Shown: positions 1 through 39,600 of the stretch, piece by piece
How the letters are laid out: each line of letters starts with the position of its first letter
Position numbering within the stretch: the stretch's first letter is position 1
From: Microcoleus sp.
Lineage (GTDB): Bacteria; Cyanobacteriota; Cyanobacteriia; Cyanobacteriales; Microcoleaceae
Reading direction: 5' to 3'
Assembly (NCBI GenBank): GCA_042408215.1
Contig: JAYFMW010000030.1
Coordinates: forward strand, 608,001 to 672,000
DNA: 64,000 nt
Translations under genes and position numbers: made by a program
The notes under the pieces: generated by a model
Database searches by the model: none
Seen by the model: only the letters and a program-made list of their open reading frames with translations
What the model was told of the DNA's origin: nothing

Positions 1-407
<407 letters not shown>

Positions 408-595
408 TTAATCATTCTACCGGTGTTGTGGCACAGAAACTTGTGTAAACTACCCGACACTGACCGCTTAGGCCTTACAGCACGGGCTTTCAGCAACCCT
501 CAAAACGACATCTGGCTTCAAAAAAATCTAGTGTCCAATTGAAATAAAATTGCGATCGGTATATTAACCAGCCCTAGCAAACCAGAAAATCAAAA

Positions 596-1642
596 ATGTT
601 AGAGTTCGATCGACTATTCCAAACGATCGCAGAATTAGTCATGCTGCATTCGCCCAGCGGTGTGGAGTCAGAAATTAACCAGCGGTTGATGGAAAAATTC
701 GCCGCCCTGGGTGTGAATGCTTGGTTGGATCGCGCGGATAATGCGATCGCCCTAATTCCGGGCCGCAATCGGCAAAAGTCGATCGCCATTACCGCCCACA
801 AAGACGAAATAGGCGCGATCGTCAAAACCATCGGTGACTACGGGCGCGTCGAAGTTCGCAAATTGGGCGGCGCGTTTCCCTGGGTGTACGGCGAAGGCGT
901 TGTCGATTTGTTGGGCGACAAACAAACAATTAGCGGCATTCTCAGCTTCGGGAGTCGCCACGTATCCCACGAATCACCCCAAAAAGCTCAGCAGGAAAAA
1001 ACTCCGCTGAATTGGGAAAATGCCTGGATTGAAACTAAGTGTACCGCCGAGGAATTAGCCGAGGCCGGAATTCGGCCGGGAACGCGGATGGTGGTCGGAA
1101 AGCACCGCAAACAGCCCATCCGCTTGAAAGATTGGATCGCAAGCTACACCCTCGACAACAAGGCTTCAGTCGCGATTTTGCTGGGTTTGGCCCAATGTTT
1201 GAAAGAGCCTGCGGTGAATGTTTATTTGGTGGCTTCGGCGAAGGAGGAGGTTGGGGCGATCGGCGCTTTGTATTTCACCCAGCGGCAGCCGTTGGACGCG
1301 CTGATTGCTTTGGAAATTTGCCCCCTGGCTCCAGAATATCCGATCGCAGACGGCGATCGCCCGGTGTTGCTGGTTCAGGACGGCTACGGGATTTACGATG
1401 AAGGGTTAAACGGGGAATTGCGCGCCGCAGCTATTCGCGCGGGCGTGGAGGTGCAGTTGGCGACTATTAGCGGTTTTGGTAGCGACGCTTCGATCGCCAT
1501 GAAGTTCGGCCATGTCGCCCGCGCCGCTTGTTTAGCTTTCCCCACCCAGAATACCCACGGTTTCGAGATTGCTCACTTGGGGGCGATCGACAATTGCGCT
1601 CGTATCCTCAAAGCTTACTGCAACGAGCTTTCGGACGAATAG
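596..1642 (+). CDS. M42 family metallopeptidase (aminopeptidase/endoglucanase-like)
   Basis: HSPSGVE, TAHKDEIG, TLDNKAS, KEEVG and NTHGFE motifs. Confidence 0.88.
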   Translation: MLEFDRLFQTIAELVMLHSPSGVESEINQRLMEKFAALGVNAWLDRADNAIALIPGRNRQKSIAITAHKDEIGAIVKTIGDYGRVEVRKLGGAFPWVYGEGVVDLLGDKQTISGILSFGSRHVSHESPQKAQQEKTPLNWENAWIETKCTAEELAEAGIRPGTRMVVGKHRKQPIRLKDWIASYTLDNKASVAILLGLAQCLKEPAVNVYLVASAKEEVGAIGALYFTQRQPLDALIALEICPLAPEYPIADGDRPVLLVQDGYGIYDEGLNGELRAAAIRAGVEVQLATISGFGSDASIAMKFGHVARAACLAFPTQNTHGFEIAHLGAIDNCARILKAYCNELSDE

Positions 1643-2619: not shown

Positions 2620-3236
2620 TAAAAAACCCGGTTTCTTTAGTTGGCTGGTAGCCAGAAACCGGGTTTTTTTACGAAATACTTGGTTGTCACCCGCAGATTA
2701 GGTAAAAACCCGGTTTCTTTAGTTGGCGGGTAGCCAGAAACCGGGTTTTTTTACGAAATACTTCGTCGCCACCGGTAGATTCAGTAAAAAACCCGGTTTC
2801 TTTAGTTGGCTGGTAGCCAGAAACCGGGTTTTTGTCGAAAAATCCCCCATCAAAACCCGCAGATTAGGTAAAAACCCGGTTTCTTTAGTTGGCGGGTAGC
2901 CAGAAACCGGGTTTTTGTCGAAATACTTGGTTGTCACCAGCAGATTCGGTAAAAAACCCGGTTTCTTTAGTTGGCGGGTAGCCAGAAACCGGGTTTTTTT
3001 ACGAAATACTTCGTCGCCACCGGTAGATTCAGTAAAAAACCCGGTTTCTTTAGTTGGCTGGTAGCCAGAAACCGGGTTTTTGTCGAAAAATCCCCCATCA
3101 AAACCCGCAGATTAGGTAAAAACCCGGTTTCTTTAGTTGGCGGGTAGCCAGAAACCGGGTTTTTGTCGAAATACTTGGTTGTCACCAGCAGATTCGGTAA
3201 AAAACCCGGTTTCTTTGTCGGAGTGCGTAAGTCCTG
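2620..3236. repeat. Tandem array of AAAAACCCGGTTTCT/AGAAACCGGGTTTTT palindromic repeats with an exact 248-bp higher-order duplication
   Basis: Two identical 72-aa ORFs offset by 248 bp (2719, 2967); ends in GTCGGAGTGCGTAAGTCCTG; family recurs at ~43710, ~49275 and ~57977. Confidence 0.9.
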
Positions 3237-3316: not shown

Positions 3317-4744
3317 ATGCTGATGAGCCAGTGTCTAAACCCTGATTGTCTCAACCAAAACCCATCCGGTACTAACTTCTGTCATAAATGTGGAAATAAA
3401 CTGCTATTGGGCGATCGCTACCGAGCCCAAAAAATTATTGGACAAGGGGGATTTGGGCGCACTTTTCTGGCTATTGACGAGTATAAACCCTCAAAACCTC
3501 CTTGCGTTATTAAACAATTTTATCCTCAATTTCAAGGCACTTCTAGTATCCAGAAAGCTGCTGAGTTATTTGAGCTTGAAGCAGTACGCCTAGAACAGTT
3601 GGGTAAACATTCTCAAATTCCCGAATTATTAGCATATTTTAGTCAAGATGAACGGCAGTATTTAGTCCAAGAATTCATCGACGGTGAAAATTTAGCCAAA
3701 ACACTAGAAACTAAGGGATATTTTAGCGAAACGCAGATTCGTGACTTGCTTAAGAATTTATTGCCAGTGTTTGAGTTCATTCACTCTCGCCAAGTCATTC
3801 ACCGAGATATCAAGCTAGAAAATATTATTTTGAGGTCAAATCGTGAATTAGTTTTAGTTGACTTTGGCGCGGCAAAATATGCGACTCAAACAGCTTTAGC
3901 GGTAACGGGAACAATAATCGGAAGTGCTGGATATACAGCACCGGAACAAGCAGCAGGGAAAGCTATTTATGCTAGTGATATTTATAGTTTAGGTGTGACT
4001 TGTCTATGTCTGTTAACTCAAGTTGAACCGCTTGAATTATTCGATGTGAGCGAGTTTGAGTGGGTGTGGCGAGAACACTTAAAAACGTCTGTTAGTTCAG
4101 AATTGGGTCAGATTTTAGATAAAATGATTCAACCTGCTATTAAGAAACGTTATCAATCTGCTACTGAAGTGTTGCAGGCTATTGCTTCTCAATCACCTCA
4201 ACCATCACCTCAAGTATCTCCTCCGCCACCAGACTCCCTGAAATCAGCGCGGGGTGTTGACTATACTCGTCTCCGGGATTTATTGGCCACAGGGGAGTGG
4301 AAAGAAGCGGATGAGGAAACACTCAAGGTGATGTTAAAAGCTGCTAGACGGGAGAAGGAAAGCTATTTTAATAGGGAATCGATCGAGAATTTTCCTTGCG
4401 ATGATTTGCGGACGATCGACCAATTGTGGGTAAAATACAGTCAGGGTCACTTTGGCTTTAGCGTCCAGAAAAAAATCTGGTTGGAAGTAGGCGGTAAAGT
4501 TGATTATGATACAGAATGCAAGTTGGGCGATCGTGTCGGTTGGCGAAAGAGGAGAAAGGGGAGGAAAGATTGGTTGAAGTACGATGACCTGACGTTTAAT
4601 CTAAAGCAAGCACCACGGGGACACCTCCCGTCGTGTGCGCGTGTGTTTGCGTGGGAGGGAGGAGGATTGGGTTGGGTTGTTGGGGTGTTGGGGTGGTTGG
4701 GGTTGGTTGTGTGGTTCTCTCTTCTCTCGCATCGAGAACTGTAA
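3317..4744 (+). CDS. Ser/Thr protein kinase (N-terminal 4-Cys motif) fused to a C-terminal GUN4 domain
   Basis: CLNPDC..FCHKCG; GQGGFGRT, HRDIKLEN, VDFG, GYTAPEQ; GUN4 motifs GVDYTRLRDLLA..WKEADEET, FPCDDLRTIDQLWVKYS.GHFGFSVQK, APRGHLP. Confidence 0.93.
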   Translation: MLMSQCLNPDCLNQNPSGTNFCHKCGNKLLLGDRYRAQKIIGQGGFGRTFLAIDEYKPSKPPCVIKQFYPQFQGTSSIQKAAELFELEAVRLEQLGKHSQIPELLAYFSQDERQYLVQEFIDGENLAKTLETKGYFSETQIRDLLKNLLPVFEFIHSRQVIHRDIKLENIILRSNRELVLVDFGAAKYATQTALAVTGTIIGSAGYTAPEQAAGKAIYASDIYSLGVTCLCLLTQVEPLELFDVSEFEWVWREHLKTSVSSELGQILDKMIQPAIKKRYQSATEVLQAIASQSPQPSPQVSPPPPDSLKSARGVDYTRLRDLLATGEWKEADEETLKVMLKAARREKESYFNRESIENFPCDDLRTIDQLWVKYSQGHFGFSVQKKIWLEVGGKVDYDTECKLGDRVGWRKRRKGRKDWLKYDDLTFNLKQAPRGHLPSCARVFAWEGGGLGWVVGVLGWLGLVVWFSLLSHREL

Positions 4745-4856
4745 GCTGTAATCTCTAGCGATTTCAGCCCTTTGTCAAGTCTTTTTTCTCGAACCTTTTT
4801 CTACGAAGTTATCGGCTTTTGGTCATTTCATTACCTGCTACTTAAATTAATAATCA

Positions 4857-5111
4857 ATGCCAATAAAAGTCAGAGATATAATTAAACAACTAGAGGCAGA
4901 CGGTTGGTATCTAGCTAGAACACGAGGGAGTCACCGCCAGTACAAACATCCTACCAAATCAGGTTTAGTTACAGTTCCGGGTAAACTATCTGACGATTTG
5001 GCTCCTGGTACATCCAATAATATTCTCAAACAAGCTCAATTCAAAGAAGTTAAAGAGCAACAAAAACCTAACGAAGTCGAAACCAATCATCAAGATGAGG
5101 ATCTCAACTAA
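4857..5111 (+). CDS. hicA: HicA family mRNA interferase toxin
   Basis: DGWYLARTRGSHRQYKHPTKSGLVTVPG motif; coupled to hicB. Confidence 0.9.
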   Translation: MPIKVRDIIKQLEADGWYLARTRGSHRQYKHPTKSGLVTVPGKLSDDLAPGTSNNILKQAQFKEVKEQQKPNEVETNHQDEDLN

Positions 5112-5320
5112 TGCGTTATGCCATTGTCATTGAAAAAACACCCAATAACTATTCAGCATATCCACCAGATTTACCCGGATGTGCAGCCACAGGCGCTACC
5201 CTTGCGGAAGTACAGCAACAAATTCAAGAAGCGATCGAATTTCACTTAGAAGGATTGCGAGAAGAGGGTTTACCGATTCCCGAAGCAACTACACTTTGTG
5301 AATATGTAGAAGCAATGTAG
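5111..5320 (+). CDS. hicB: HicB family antitoxin
   Basis: YAIVIEK..NNYSAY.PDLPGCAATGAT.AEV...I.EAIEFHLEGLREEG. Confidence 0.9.
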   Translation: MRYAIVIEKTPNNYSAYPPDLPGCAATGATLAEVQQQIQEAIEFHLEGLREEGLPIPEATTLCEYVEAM

Positions 5321-6547: not shown

Positions 6548-8095
6548 TTGACACTCCCCGGTCTGAAGACGCGGGGATTCTTAAGGACAAACTTTGGGGG
6601 ATGAATCCGCCCAAAGTTTAATTCTTAAAGGGTTAGTCAGTAACCCGCTACCCACTCGCTCAATTATTGAGTCTATGGCTACTTTTGATTTCCTAATGAT
6701 GTTTGCCGCACCGTTAATATCTGCATTCAGAATTAATTTCTGAGCAGAACGGTACAAACCTCGTTTAATTCTTTTACCAGACGGTTGCCAATTGTCGGGT
6801 TTTTCACCGACTTTCACTGGCAACAAATCTCGGTCTAAAAAACTTGATTTTGAGGTGTAAGATTCGTCTTGCTCTACAAATCGCCAACCCCTTAAGTCAC
6901 ACTCTTGTTGTAATCTATCTTTAACTTTGGCGGTAGGGATTTGGACAAAGTTTTGGTGATTTTTGCCTCCCATATTAACTTCTTGCTTTTGTCCTTTATT
7001 CCAGCCAAAAACCAGGACATTGATTTGGTGATTTTCGCAATAATTTATGATGGTTCTAACTGCTTTGTTGACAGCATCTCTCATTCTTCTGGTGCGAGTT
7101 TCTGACAACTGTTGCAGTCTCTTTGACGAGAAACCTTTGGGTAATTTATGTATTGTGTGTTCTGATTGAATTCTCGCTTTTTCTTTGTTAAACCATTGGT
7201 TCCAAGACTTGAGTCTATGTCCATCAATAATGAATGGCTTACCATTACTAGAGACACAAGTTAACCAGTTATTGATGCCGTGATCGATACCCAGAACCCC
7301 TGTTACTTCCAAGCTGCAACTAGGGGCTTGTTCAGTCAGGGATTCGTGGACATATTCGACCCAGACCTCACCATTTCTAGGGATTAGCCTGAGTTCTTTA
7401 ATCTGGCAATCTTTCAGCCTTTCTGGTAAAGTCACCCACAGAGCATCTGCCCCAAAGTGTTCTTTGCCTTTGGTTCCCAGAGGTAGCCTTACCCGATTGC
7501 CGACTATTTTCAAGGCTTGCCCAGGGTATGAAACTTGGTACATTGCTCCCTTGGTTCTGTACTTTGGCAATCTCGGTTTTTGATTAAGTTGCCCCTTTTT
7601 AGCCAGCCTTTCTAAGGCTCGGAAAGAACTAAAGGATTCAGCAACAGACTTCAGGGATTGTTGGGCGACCTGCGAGTAGAGTAGACCGTAATTTTCGTTG
7701 GGTTTGGCAATTTTGTACAGGTCTGGGTATTTAATTACGCCTTTGTCTTTAAAGTACCGTTGCCTACTTTCGTAAGTGCCGACATTAAATAGATTGTTTG
7801 ACCATCTGAGGATTTGCTCGACAATGGTTTTGTCAAGTCCCGTTAAATGCCAAACATCTTTTTGTACTGCGTACATTTAACTTACTGGCTATGGTGACAC
7901 TAGGTTTAGTATATATCGTGAATTAACAAGTTAATTAATACTCCACAAATCTTTACCTTTGTCTCAATTGCTAGAAGTATTTGTCCGGGGACGGTTAAAC
8001 ATTATGTTATATTGAAACTTACGAACAGGCAGGATAAATCCTGCCACGCCCTTTCATCCCTGGACTAAAGTCACAGGGTTTTCAGGGTATTTCTT
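6548..8095 (-). mobile_element. IS200/IS605-family (IS1341-like, TnpB-only) element
   Basis: Right end GAATCCCCGCGTCTTCAGACCGGGGAGTGTCAA and left-end hairpin shared with the copy at 60758-62204; TTTAT immediately 5' of the left end. Confidence 0.85.
6581..7876 (-). CDS. tnpB: RNA-guided endonuclease TnpB
   Basis: GIDHGINN, QDESYTSK, LNADINGAANI RuvC motifs. Confidence 0.93.
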   Translation of the reverse strand: MYAVQKDVWHLTGLDKTIVEQILRWSNNLFNVGTYESRQRYFKDKGVIKYPDLYKIAKPNENYGLLYSQVAQQSLKSVAESFSSFRALERLAKKGQLNQKPRLPKYRTKGAMYQVSYPGQALKIVGNRVRLPLGTKGKEHFGADALWVTLPERLKDCQIKELRLIPRNGEVWVEYVHESLTEQAPSCSLEVTGVLGIDHGINNWLTCVSSNGKPFIIDGHRLKSWNQWFNKEKARIQSEHTIHKLPKGFSSKRLQQLSETRTRRMRDAVNKAVRTIINYCENHQINVLVFGWNKGQKQEVNMGGKNHQNFVQIPTAKVKDRLQQECDLRGWRFVEQDESYTSKSSFLDRDLLPVKVGEKPDNWQPSGKRIKRGLYRSAQKLILNADINGAANIIRKSKVAIDSIIERVGSGLLTNPLRIKLWADSSPKVCP

Positions 8096-10847: not shown

Positions 10848-11047
10848 GATTGTTGATTGTTGATTGTTGATTGTTGACTGTTGACTTTTGACTGTTGACT
10901 TTTGACTGTTGACTTTTGACTGTTGGCTGTTGGCGGTACGAATGTTGTCATTCCCAATGCCCCATGCCCCATGCCCCATGCCCCATTCCCCATTCCCCAT
11001 TCCCCATGCCCCATGCCCCATTCCCCATGCCCCATTCCCCATTCCCA
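10848..11047. repeat. STRR heptamer arrays (GATTGTT/GACTGTT then CCCCATG/CCCCATT)
   Basis: Direct 7-mer tandem repeats. Confidence 0.92.
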
Positions 11048-38344: not shown

Positions 38345-38760
38345 TTAGTCATTAGTCATTAGTCATTAGTCATTAGTCATTAGTCATTAGTCATTAGTCA
38401 TTAGTCATTAGTCATTAGTCATTAGTTATTAGTTATTGGTGATTAGTCATTAGTCATTAGTCATTGGTCATTAGTCATTGGTCATTAGTCATTAGTCATT
38501 AGTTATTGGTCATTAGTCATTAGTCATTAGTCATTAGTTATTGGTTATTCGTTATTCGTTATTGGTGATTCGTTATTCGTTATTAGGAAAAGGAAAGGAT
38601 TAGTAATTCCCCATTCCCCATTCCCGATTCCCCATTCCCGATTCCCCATTCCCGATTCCCCATTCCCGATTCCCGATTCCCGATTCCCGATTCCCCATTC
38701 CCGATTCCCAATTCCCAATTCCCCATTCCCGATTCCCCATTCCCCATTCCCCATTCCCAA
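38345..38760. repeat. Long STRR arrays (ATTAGTC, TTATTCG, TTCCCCA/TTCCCGA)
   Basis: Direct 6-7-mer tandem repeats. Confidence 0.95.
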
Positions 38761-39400: not shown

Positions 39401-39600
39401 GAATTGGGAATGGGGAATGGGGAATGGGGAATTGGGAATGGGGAATTGGGAATTGGGAATGGGGAATGGGGAATGGGGAATTGGGAATTGGGAATGGGGA
39501 ATGGGGAATTGGGAATGGGGAATTCGTAATTGGTAGTAACTCACCATAACCAAGAACAATTAACCAAGAACAATTAACCAAGAACAATTAACAATTAACC
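39401..39600. repeat. STRR arrays (GGGAATG/GGGAATT; AACAATT)
   Basis: Direct 7-mer tandem repeats. Confidence 0.9.

Follow-up and report, generated by a model that had tools for sequence, protein, structure and literature searches.

A 3' tail conserved as DNA in three reading frames, behind a replaced spacer, in a kinase-GUN4 gene of Microcoleus sp. and in GUN4-fusion genes of related cyanobacteria

The DNA analysed here is a 64 kb stretch of Microcoleus sp. (assembly GCA_042408215.1, contig JAYFMW010000030.1, positions 608,001-672,000), referred to as the window, and the element in question is the 3' end of a gene of this window encoding a fusion of a Ser/Thr protein kinase with a GUN4 domain. 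After the GHLP codons of the GUN4 domain the gene passes through a G/T-rich spacer of its own into a constant tail that can be read, and is terminated, in each of the three frames. This tail is conserved as DNA beyond the need of any single reading frame. We consider it probable (about 0.7) that the three-frame tail and the spacer replaced in front of it are a module shared by GUN4-fusion genes across the order Cyanobacteriales.

The kinase-GUN4 gene reads the tail as SLLSHREL and stops at the TAA of 4742-4744 (type 1); the two frames unused in this copy give SLFSRIENCKL with a TAA at 4749-4751 (type 2) and SSLASRTVSCNL with a TAG at 4756-4758 (type 3), the three stops being spaced by exactly 7 nt. 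These terminated C-termini and their positions, proposed in an initial annotation made from the letters of the window, were recovered by frame translation. The tail core occurs three times in the Microcoleus genome, always at the end of a GUN4 gene, and is shared by three kinase-GUN4 paralogues which enter it in a different frame each: L002 ends in LFSRVETCKA, L003 in SSLASRLVKCNI and the window gene in SLLSHREL, while the unused frames of each still spell the other two tails. That paralogue tails are homologous DNA read in shifted frames, as the same annotation had suggested, is borne out in these paralogues and also in the orthologues described below. Decayed tails were found in the same genome at L005 (RIASRLSACYR, tail-like peptide in one frame only) and in the group of L006 (FLLSRRDL, again in one frame only, with unrelated DNA 3' of the stop). 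L006 itself (G000:C30:488177-489685, minus strand) is a second kinase-GUN4 paralogue on the same contig, with a G/T-rich spacer and a drifted tail (FLLSRGDW, being FLLSRRDL or RRDV in other species), and is followed by a tandem repeat of a 7-nt unit (AGTCATT-like) instead of the conserved block that is described further below.

For the comparison across the order, peptide patterns were back-translated with every synonymous codon allowed and searched in 301 genomes, using the reversed pattern on the same genomes as a control. The type-3 pattern (S-R-L-V-x-C-N-I-stop) was matched 65 times, in 48 genomes from 30 genera, one match being plainly unrelated (control: 2 matches), and the type-2 pattern (F-S-R-V-E-T-C) 90 times, in 67 genomes from 38 genera (control: 0). 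Arginine is written AGA in 64/64 and leucine CTT in 63/64 of the type-3 matches, serine is written TCT in 89/90 and arginine CGC in 88/90 of the type-2 matches; in the GUN4 domain of the same genes, AGA, CTT, TCT and CGC represent 19%, 16%, 14% and 33% of the codons of their amino acids. The type-1 stop (TAA, TAG or TGA), which neither pattern requires, is kept in 64/64 type-3 and 83/90 type-2 matches. In a set of 42 loci from many genera, stops stand at +16, +23 and +30 in 42, 41 and 42 loci, respectively, irrespective of the frame used, although the retention of the two stops by which loci were fetched (type-3 or type-2 reading plus stop) is partly a matter of construction.

Of these 42 loci, 16 use type 3, 17 use type 2 and 9 use type 1. 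A census of the best 120 of 4188 database relatives of the C-terminal region gave 54 tails of type 1, 27 of type 2, 29 of type 3 and 10 others; once the 27 orthologues sharing the spacer of the window gene (form A, see below) are removed, the three types among these best 120 split 27 : 27 : 29, and such near-equal use is expected from random spacer length. Relatives at 77-84% identity use type 2. The claim of the initial annotation that GUN4 fusion proteins commonly end in three tail types holds in this census, 110 of the 120 best relatives carrying one of them. Many database relatives (alignment A2) have two or three tandem GUN4 domains per protein, the inner domain closing with a read-through FSRxExCxL motif before the next GUN4 domain begins.

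From GHLP to the tail, the spacer measures 27-144 nt in the 42 loci, and its composition does not differ between first, second and third codon positions (A.13-.16, C.13-.14, G.37-.40, T.33-.34), unlike the adjacent GUN4 domain, which has the usual codon periodicity. Its commonest 5-mers are GGGGG, GGTGG and TGGGG. A canonical G-quadruplex motif is present in 8 of the 42 spacers, compared with 3.5 expected from shuffled sequences, and 2 of 500 shuffles reach 8. An alternative frame of the spacer contains a stop in 46 of 84 cases.

Turnover of the spacer was assessed on pairs of loci in which 450 or more of the 600 upstream nucleotides align at an identity of 80% or higher, loci identical over 140 nt being dropped as the same locus fetched twice. 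In all 10 related pairs (flanks 80-98.5% identical), the longest spacer match does not exceed 11 nt, and both length and frame differ. The closest pair (L088/L089) has 98.5% identity upstream and 96.8% downstream, around unrelated spacers of 41 and 39 nt that lead into different frames. Identity within pairs ends after the GHLP codons and resumes at TCTTCTCTCGCG, so that the spacer has sharp boundaries; the same abrupt replacement is seen within the genus at L056, L057 and L060, and in the pair L037/L038 the spacer is partly alignable and differs by insertions and deletions (indels) and by substitutions. At the level of the family, the ten pairs agree with the targeted, length-changing diversification that the initial annotation had proposed, the tail absorbing the frameshifts; the current hypervariation it had attributed to the window copy is not found, as set out below.

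In the window copy, the segment 4631-4730 contains 48 G, 37 T, 11 C and 4 A, and 4651-4714 contains 39 G, 21 T, 4 A and no C, within a gene (3317-4744) having 408 A in 1428 nt. The recount confirms exactly the 4 A and the absence of C given in the initial annotation, and the segment is open in the three frames as claimed, all of them being open from about 4604. Over the 64 kb and on both strands, windows of 100 nt with no more than 4 A (or T) start only at 4624-4631. The longest G-run of the spacer is 4 nt. Its product includes a segment, GLGWVVGVLGWLGLVVWFSLL, whose Kyte-Doolittle mean over 19 residues peaks at 1.98; judged by hydropathy, the form-A end is hydrophobic and possibly anchors the protein to a membrane. 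An AlphaFold2 model of residues 300-475, built on an alignment of 58 rows, is confident for the GUN4 domain and gives a pLDDT (predicted local distance difference test) below 50 for the spacer (fragment residues 146-162) and of only 56-63 for a terminal helix (fragment residues 161-173); given this low confidence, the model says nothing firm on docking of the tail or on a membrane helix. A genome search with the spacers of the window gene, L002 and L003 returned only the spacers themselves and other matches of 17 nt at most. Silent donor cassettes for these three spacers are ruled out in the genome, none of them having a second copy. Elsewhere in the window, evenly spaced arrays of G-quadruplex motifs, probably tandem repeats, lie at 10967-11046, 38623-38758 (minus strand) and 39406-39513 (plus strand).

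The stability of this copy was examined through orthologues in 24 genomes of the genus and through a gene tree of 11 orthologues. Form A, with the same 84-nt spacer, the same length and the type-1 frame, is present in 8 species; in 3 species (form B), an unrelated stretch enters the same tail DNA in the type-3 frame, and these orthologues lack a hydrophobic helix like that of form A. Of the 41 codons between GHLP and the stop, 13 vary among the 8 form-A species, and over the 33 spacer codons the proportions of synonymous and non-synonymous differences (pS and pN) are 0.079 and 0.026 (ratio 0.32): the form-A spacer is inherited within the lineage under purifying selection. The gene tree is star-like, with a single supported split, and does not resolve the number of switches; form B lies on the same side of that split as some form A, which implies at least one rewriting of the spacer inside the genus.

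Public sequencing runs were compared as contigs only (run X12 having no coverage of 4713-4901). Contigs X9 and X10, from two other studies, have zero differences in 4534-4751, with 6 differences in 4487-4533 and 3 in 4752-4760. No length variant or indel of the spacer was found in the contigs of four runs, contigs being assemblies that drop rare variants. In run X6, a second contig with flanks 93-96% identical has the 171 nt of 4549-4719 replaced by 127 other letters. The local excess of variants anticipated at 4631-4715 is thus absent from the contigs, and the same spacer persists in 8 species with the pN/pS ratio given above. Coordinates of the features are collected in the following table.

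Table 1. Features of the window at and around the 3' end of the kinase-GUN4 gene
Feature	Position	Strand	Basis
Ser/Thr protein kinase-GUN4 fusion gene, 475 aa	3317..4744	+	Open reading frame and Pfam matches
GHLP codons, fixed left edge of the variable spacer	4619..4630	+	Identity of related pairs ends directly 3' of GHLP
Private G/T-rich spacer, 84 nt, form A, type-1 frame, encoding SCARVFAWEGGGLGWVVGVLGWLGLVVW	4631..4714	+	Composition; single genomic copy
Hydrophobic segment GLGWVVGVLGWLGLVVWFSLL, candidate C-terminal membrane helix	4664..4726	+	Kyte-Doolittle hydropathy
Canonical G-quadruplex motif inside the spacer	4669..4693	+ (coding strand)	Motif search
Constant three-frame tail, with short inverted repeat TCTCG-CAT-CGAGA	4715..4758	+	Shared core, conserved stops
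Decayed conserved block, at other loci the link between the tail and a convergent RAYT-like Y1 gene	4759..4842	+	Collinear with blocks of L003, L061 and L056
hicA-hicB toxin-antitoxin pair	4857..5320	+	Pfam HicA_toxin (E 1.1e-20) and HicB_lk_antitox (E 2.8e-12)

The protein belongs to both Pfam families concerned: Pkinase (PF00069) is matched by residues 35-287 (E 2.3e-39, 135.8 bits for a cut-off of 31.7) and GUN4 (PF05419) by residues 310-441 (E 1.6e-41, 142.2 bits for a cut-off of 29.2), the latter match spanning profile positions 2-126 of 141 and leaving the last 15 positions unmatched. The GUN4 matches of seven proteins, compared to see whether the type-3 tail is the last helix of canonical GUN4, stop between profile positions 124 and 136 for every tail type. 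Among the six GUN4 loci of the genome, L001 is the canonical Gun4, which resembles the fusion proteins in its GUN4 domain up to GHLP and differs from them by its constant terminus LSNQLRGVQPFSALMAHPAWLK, which runs up to profile position 141, and by having neither spacer nor tail. Just upstream of the kinase gene, two open reading frames (ORFs; 2719-2937 and 2967-3185, minus strand) have identical translations of 72 aa and lie 248 nt apart, in what is a tandem duplication of about 250 nt. A TnpB-like ORF of 431 aa, with OrfB_IS605 and Cas12f1-like TNB domains, is located at 6581-7876 (minus strand).

Conservation does not end with the tail: it continues for about 190 nt past it in most of the 42 loci, as a block with the consensus elements TAAGGCTTTCAG, TAAAGATTTATAACAGAGG, CCACGAAGCCATG and TTTCCGATACCTGGCAC. 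Behind the tail, 6 loci have a full-length convergent ORF of the Y1 transposase type (Pfam Y1_Tnp, E 4.3e-19) and 8 more have C-terminal remnants only; the stop of this ORF lies 85-131 nt after the tail core, and the intergenic sequence between the end of the GUN4 gene and the Y1 gene is conserved, as it is for procA and tnpA_REP (see below). The window holds the decayed block only, and hicAB occupies the place where related loci have the Y1 gene or its remnant. The Y1 protein carries an HUH motif (NHVH), a Y motif (YIHANP) and an extension at its C-terminus, and scores 70 bits on NCBIfam REP_Tyr_transpos (NF047646) versus 24 bits for IS200, 70 bits being less than the curated cut-off of 80; on these scores the partner is predicted to be RAYT-like, yet it falls below the equivalog threshold of NF047646. 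A PDB sequence search with the protein gave no match at E <=0.01, and neither inverted copies nor REP palindromes were found flanking the Y1 gene in L067, L069, L075 and L037. A genome search found no Y1 gene of this RAYT-like group in the genome of the window, and 6 of 41 genomes of the genus have an intact full-length one. The initial annotation, which scanned the window, had missed this downstream partner, i.e. the conserved block and the convergent RAYT-like Y1 gene of relatives. The copy in the window is a fixed, selected descendant without the candidate enzyme: it has lost the Y1 gene and keeps a decayed block, behind which hicAB lies.

The Y1 gene was observed in varied arrangements, those of L097, L098 and L100-L102 being from the genus. 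In L097 it faces a GUN4 tail. In L098 (G009:C410) the block and the distal tail are found about 100-130 nt after the Y1 gene, with no GUN4 gene, the tail being cut at TTGTAG; the break at the TCTCGCGTCGAGAC/TTGTAG junction is beside a G-rich stretch and may mark a cleavage or junction point. In L099 (G014:C68) a Y1 gene truncated near residue 218-246 abuts the start of the GUN4 domain of a kinase-GUN4 gene, a layout which looks like a deletion of domain, spacer, tail and block. In L100 the Y1 gene (556-1365, minus strand) faces an ORF of 92 aa (127-402, plus strand) with a leader-like EEELELDDVQLATVVGGG motif (ending in VVGGG) followed by a Gly/Ile-rich repeat, for which no NCBIfam match was found. 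In L101 and L102 it faces, at a distance of 58 nt, the 3' end of a gene for a 52-aa cyanobactin precursor of the anacyclamide/piricyclamide type (in L101, 2300-2455 on the minus strand beside 1501-2241 on the plus strand; L102 has the same layout); this precursor scores 56.5 bits on TIGR04446 (cut-off 35) and represents a second kind of variable C-terminal peptide facing a Y1 gene.

A structured RNA element at the tail was considered and rejected. An Rfam scan of 8 loci with E up to 1 returned 4 weak matches, none of them in the tail or the block, and RNAalifold on tail and block of 25 sequences (plus strand) gave only 4 invariant pairs with a covariation term of 0, so that neither a consensus structure with covariation nor an Rfam match was obtained.

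As we read these data, the module would comprise a private, G/T-rich spacer of 27-144 nt without codon phase, placed directly after GHLP; a constant tail of about 44 nt with its three stops 7 nt apart; a conserved non-coding block; and, in complete copies, a convergent RAYT-like Y1 (HUH) gene. It would be carried by GUN4 fusions with kinase, caspase, TPR and other domains. Since the stops are 7 nt apart, a spacer of any length yields a short C-terminus of the (L/F/S)-x-S-R type and a clean stop, and frequent frame changes in the lineages would be what keeps such a frame-proof tail in place. For the replacement of the spacer we infer a renewal by local break-and-repair or recombination between two fixed boundaries, perhaps with the Y1 nuclease, at work on single-stranded DNA of the constant tail, as its trigger. 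A more specific proposal, which we regard as possible but doubtful, is a diversifier independent of reverse transcriptase (RT) that would act on the GUN4-type sensors of kinases, caspases and NLR-like proteins: a domesticated Y1 (HUH) protein would nick at the tail, a G/T-biased fill-in of random length would follow, and the triple stop would rescue the product.

Several observations weigh against the module and its proposed renewal. Loci fetched by pattern under-sample decayed tails, of which L005 and L006 are cases in the genome itself, and selection on the peptide is also present, the type-2 tail of G123 being written with other codons. The G-quadruplex motif is found in no more than the 8 of 42 spacers mentioned above, the tail hairpin of 4-5 bp never covaries, and contig-level data leave rare variants within populations invisible. 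The link between the Y1 gene and the module is an association only, and no Y1 cleavage site is known at GUN4 tails; the genome of the window has no such gene and only 6/41 genomes of the genus have it intact and full-length, yet frames have switched within the genus, and the fastest-changing pair, L088/L089, has no block behind the tail.

One alternative dispenses with any dedicated mechanism: spacer alleles would be swapped between strains or paralogues by homologous recombination, with the GUN4 domain and the tail as arms, G-run slippage would account for indels, diversifying selection would act on the result, and the Y1 gene would be a passenger favouring the site. Conserved flanks, sharp boundaries and the replacement of whole spacers speak for it, as do the star-like gene tree, which is expected under recombination, the 171 nt exchanged for 127 letters in the second contig of X6, and the partly alignable spacer of L037/L038 with its indels and substitutions. 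We nevertheless hold it to be rather unlikely, as it leaves unexplained the origin of very many private spacers and the G/T bias at all codon positions; no identical spacer was found in two contexts within the sample, and the genome has no donor. It is unlikely, too, that the tail peptides are incidental, with tail and block forming one cis-acting DNA element (a Y1 recognition end, a terminator or a binding site) whose own function keeps it conserved and into which GUN4 genes run in any frame. Tail peptides outlast the drift of the DNA in L005, in the L006 group and in G123 (with other codons), FSRxExCxL is read through as a part of the protein in tandem-GUN4 proteins, the three frames give similar L-x-S-R ends that are used equally, the core stands only at GUN4 gene ends (3/3 in the genome), and neither a consensus RNA structure nor an Rfam family was found; on the side of such an element, the DNA behind the stops is as conserved as the tail, including the 3' end of the Y1 gene where that gene has been lost, and the two positions that form the type-1 stop vary between A and G roughly independently, this stop being lost in 7/90 tails.

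The remaining alternatives have little standing. A contingency locus subject to slipped-strand phase variation, or programmed frameshifting giving isoforms, is very improbable: this copy does have G-runs in its spacer and three open frames, but the runs do not exceed 4 nt, the spacer keeps the same length in 8 species, the contigs of four runs (from which rare variants are dropped) show no length variant, and the stops present in 46/84 alternative spacer frames close the other frames to translation arriving from upstream in many genes, L002 among them. Highly improbable is a plain hydrophobic anchor at the C-terminus, in which the choice of amino acids would suffice to explain the low A content, with a three-frame tail arising by chance. 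Codons made of G and T only do give Gly, Val, Trp, Leu, Phe and Cys, and the segment reaches the hydropathy of a membrane helix and is under purifying selection in its lineage; third codon positions are, however, as G/T-rich as first and second ones, form-B orthologues have no such helix, and throughout the order the tail is used in three frames. As a full explanation the anchor is refuted, and it may still describe the function of this one copy.

The initial annotation had also likened the spacer to a remote variable region of a diversity-generating retroelement (DGR). When every 36-nt window of 4600-4760 was compared with the whole genome under a rule of 'same base or A', the only matches returned were the locus itself (21 hits) and one poly-purine repeat (4 hits); the variation concerns length and not adenines, and the resemblance did not hold. 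The genome has four loci with the PF00078 (RT) domain, and its RT ORFs, two short ones of which were inspected, are, judged by their motifs, presumably RTs of group II introns. DGR variants are of equal length and sit in a C-type lectin or Ig-like fold; here the spacers range over 27-144 nt next to a GUN4 domain. A DGR origin is refuted for this genome, unless the template lies in unassembled DNA, and mutagenic retrohoming of a remote variable region is extremely improbable as an explanation, the variants differing in length and at all bases, with no adenine-rule template and no C-type lectin fold. In its favour are the position of the variable region at the 3' end of the gene, before a constant sequence with a small hairpin, and the targeting of kinase and caspase fusion proteins by cyanobacterial DGRs, as stated in PMC7517822.

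Among known systems, contingency loci have a length-variable stretch that alters the downstream reading frame, and the D segments of antigen receptors can serve in several frames, at V(D)J junctions that are G-rich. The GUN4 spacer differs from both in being no simple repeat and in showing no switching in contigs, and we know of no terminal transferase or RAG-like step for the GUN4 module. By layout, and leaving aside the orthology of the two Y1 groups, the closest published parallel would be procA facing tnpA_REP: in marine picocyanobacteria, procA genes (prochlorosin precursors) face a convergent tnpA_REP gene (Laurenceau et al., bioRxiv 10.1101/2020.03.09.984088), for which these authors propose diversifying recombination, their own evidence on causality not being strong, for or against. 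The likeness lies in a C-terminal coding part that varies by indels and faces a convergent Y1 gene of the TnpA_REP/RAYT class, in a conserved intergenic sequence and distance, in many remnants of the transposase C-terminus, and in G-rich or G-quadruplex and hairpin motifs. The target there is the core peptide of a RiPP (a peptide made on ribosomes and modified after translation) and here, in large signalling proteins, the terminal part of a GUN4 sensor domain; nothing in that work corresponds to the three-frame constant tail.

Cyanobacterial DGRs, as described in PMC7517822, share with the GUN4 module a hypervariation at the C-terminus of multidomain proteins with kinase or caspase domains, bounded by constant sequence; the GUN4 module differs by having neither template nor adenine pattern, by its variable length, by a GUN4 rather than a C-type lectin fold and by the class of its candidate enzyme. 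With the REP/RAYT system (REPtron, PMC6006769), it shares a partner of the class-2 Y1 HUH type that scores best on the REP-associated model; this partner differs in having no flanking array of palindromes and a candidate target only at GUN4 gene ends. A literature search found nothing joining GUN4 with frameshifts, RAYT/TnpA or hypervariability except PMC7159879 (on GUN4 fusions) and PMC7517822 (on cyanobacterial DGRs), and the accessible text of both makes no mention of the tail.

To our knowledge, a gene ending that is readable in three frames and used equally in each has not been described. That the tail is kept in frames its own gene does not use implies that length changes upstream have been frequent enough, for long enough, to shape DNA which the gene leaves unused. 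For annotation, the three-frame tail accounts for the three unrelated-looking motifs found at the C-termini of GUN4 fusion proteins. In many signalling and cell-death proteins of multicellular cyanobacteria, diversification is, on this account, focused on the loop that follows GHLP in the GUN4-like domain. If the diversifier proposed above were real, it would give bacteria a counterpart of antigen-receptor junctional diversity, related to what is suspected to happen in prochlorosins. Together with procA, and with the cyanobactin precursor genes that face the same kind of Y1 gene, the GUN4 module points to domesticated HUH transposases as possible generators of diversity.

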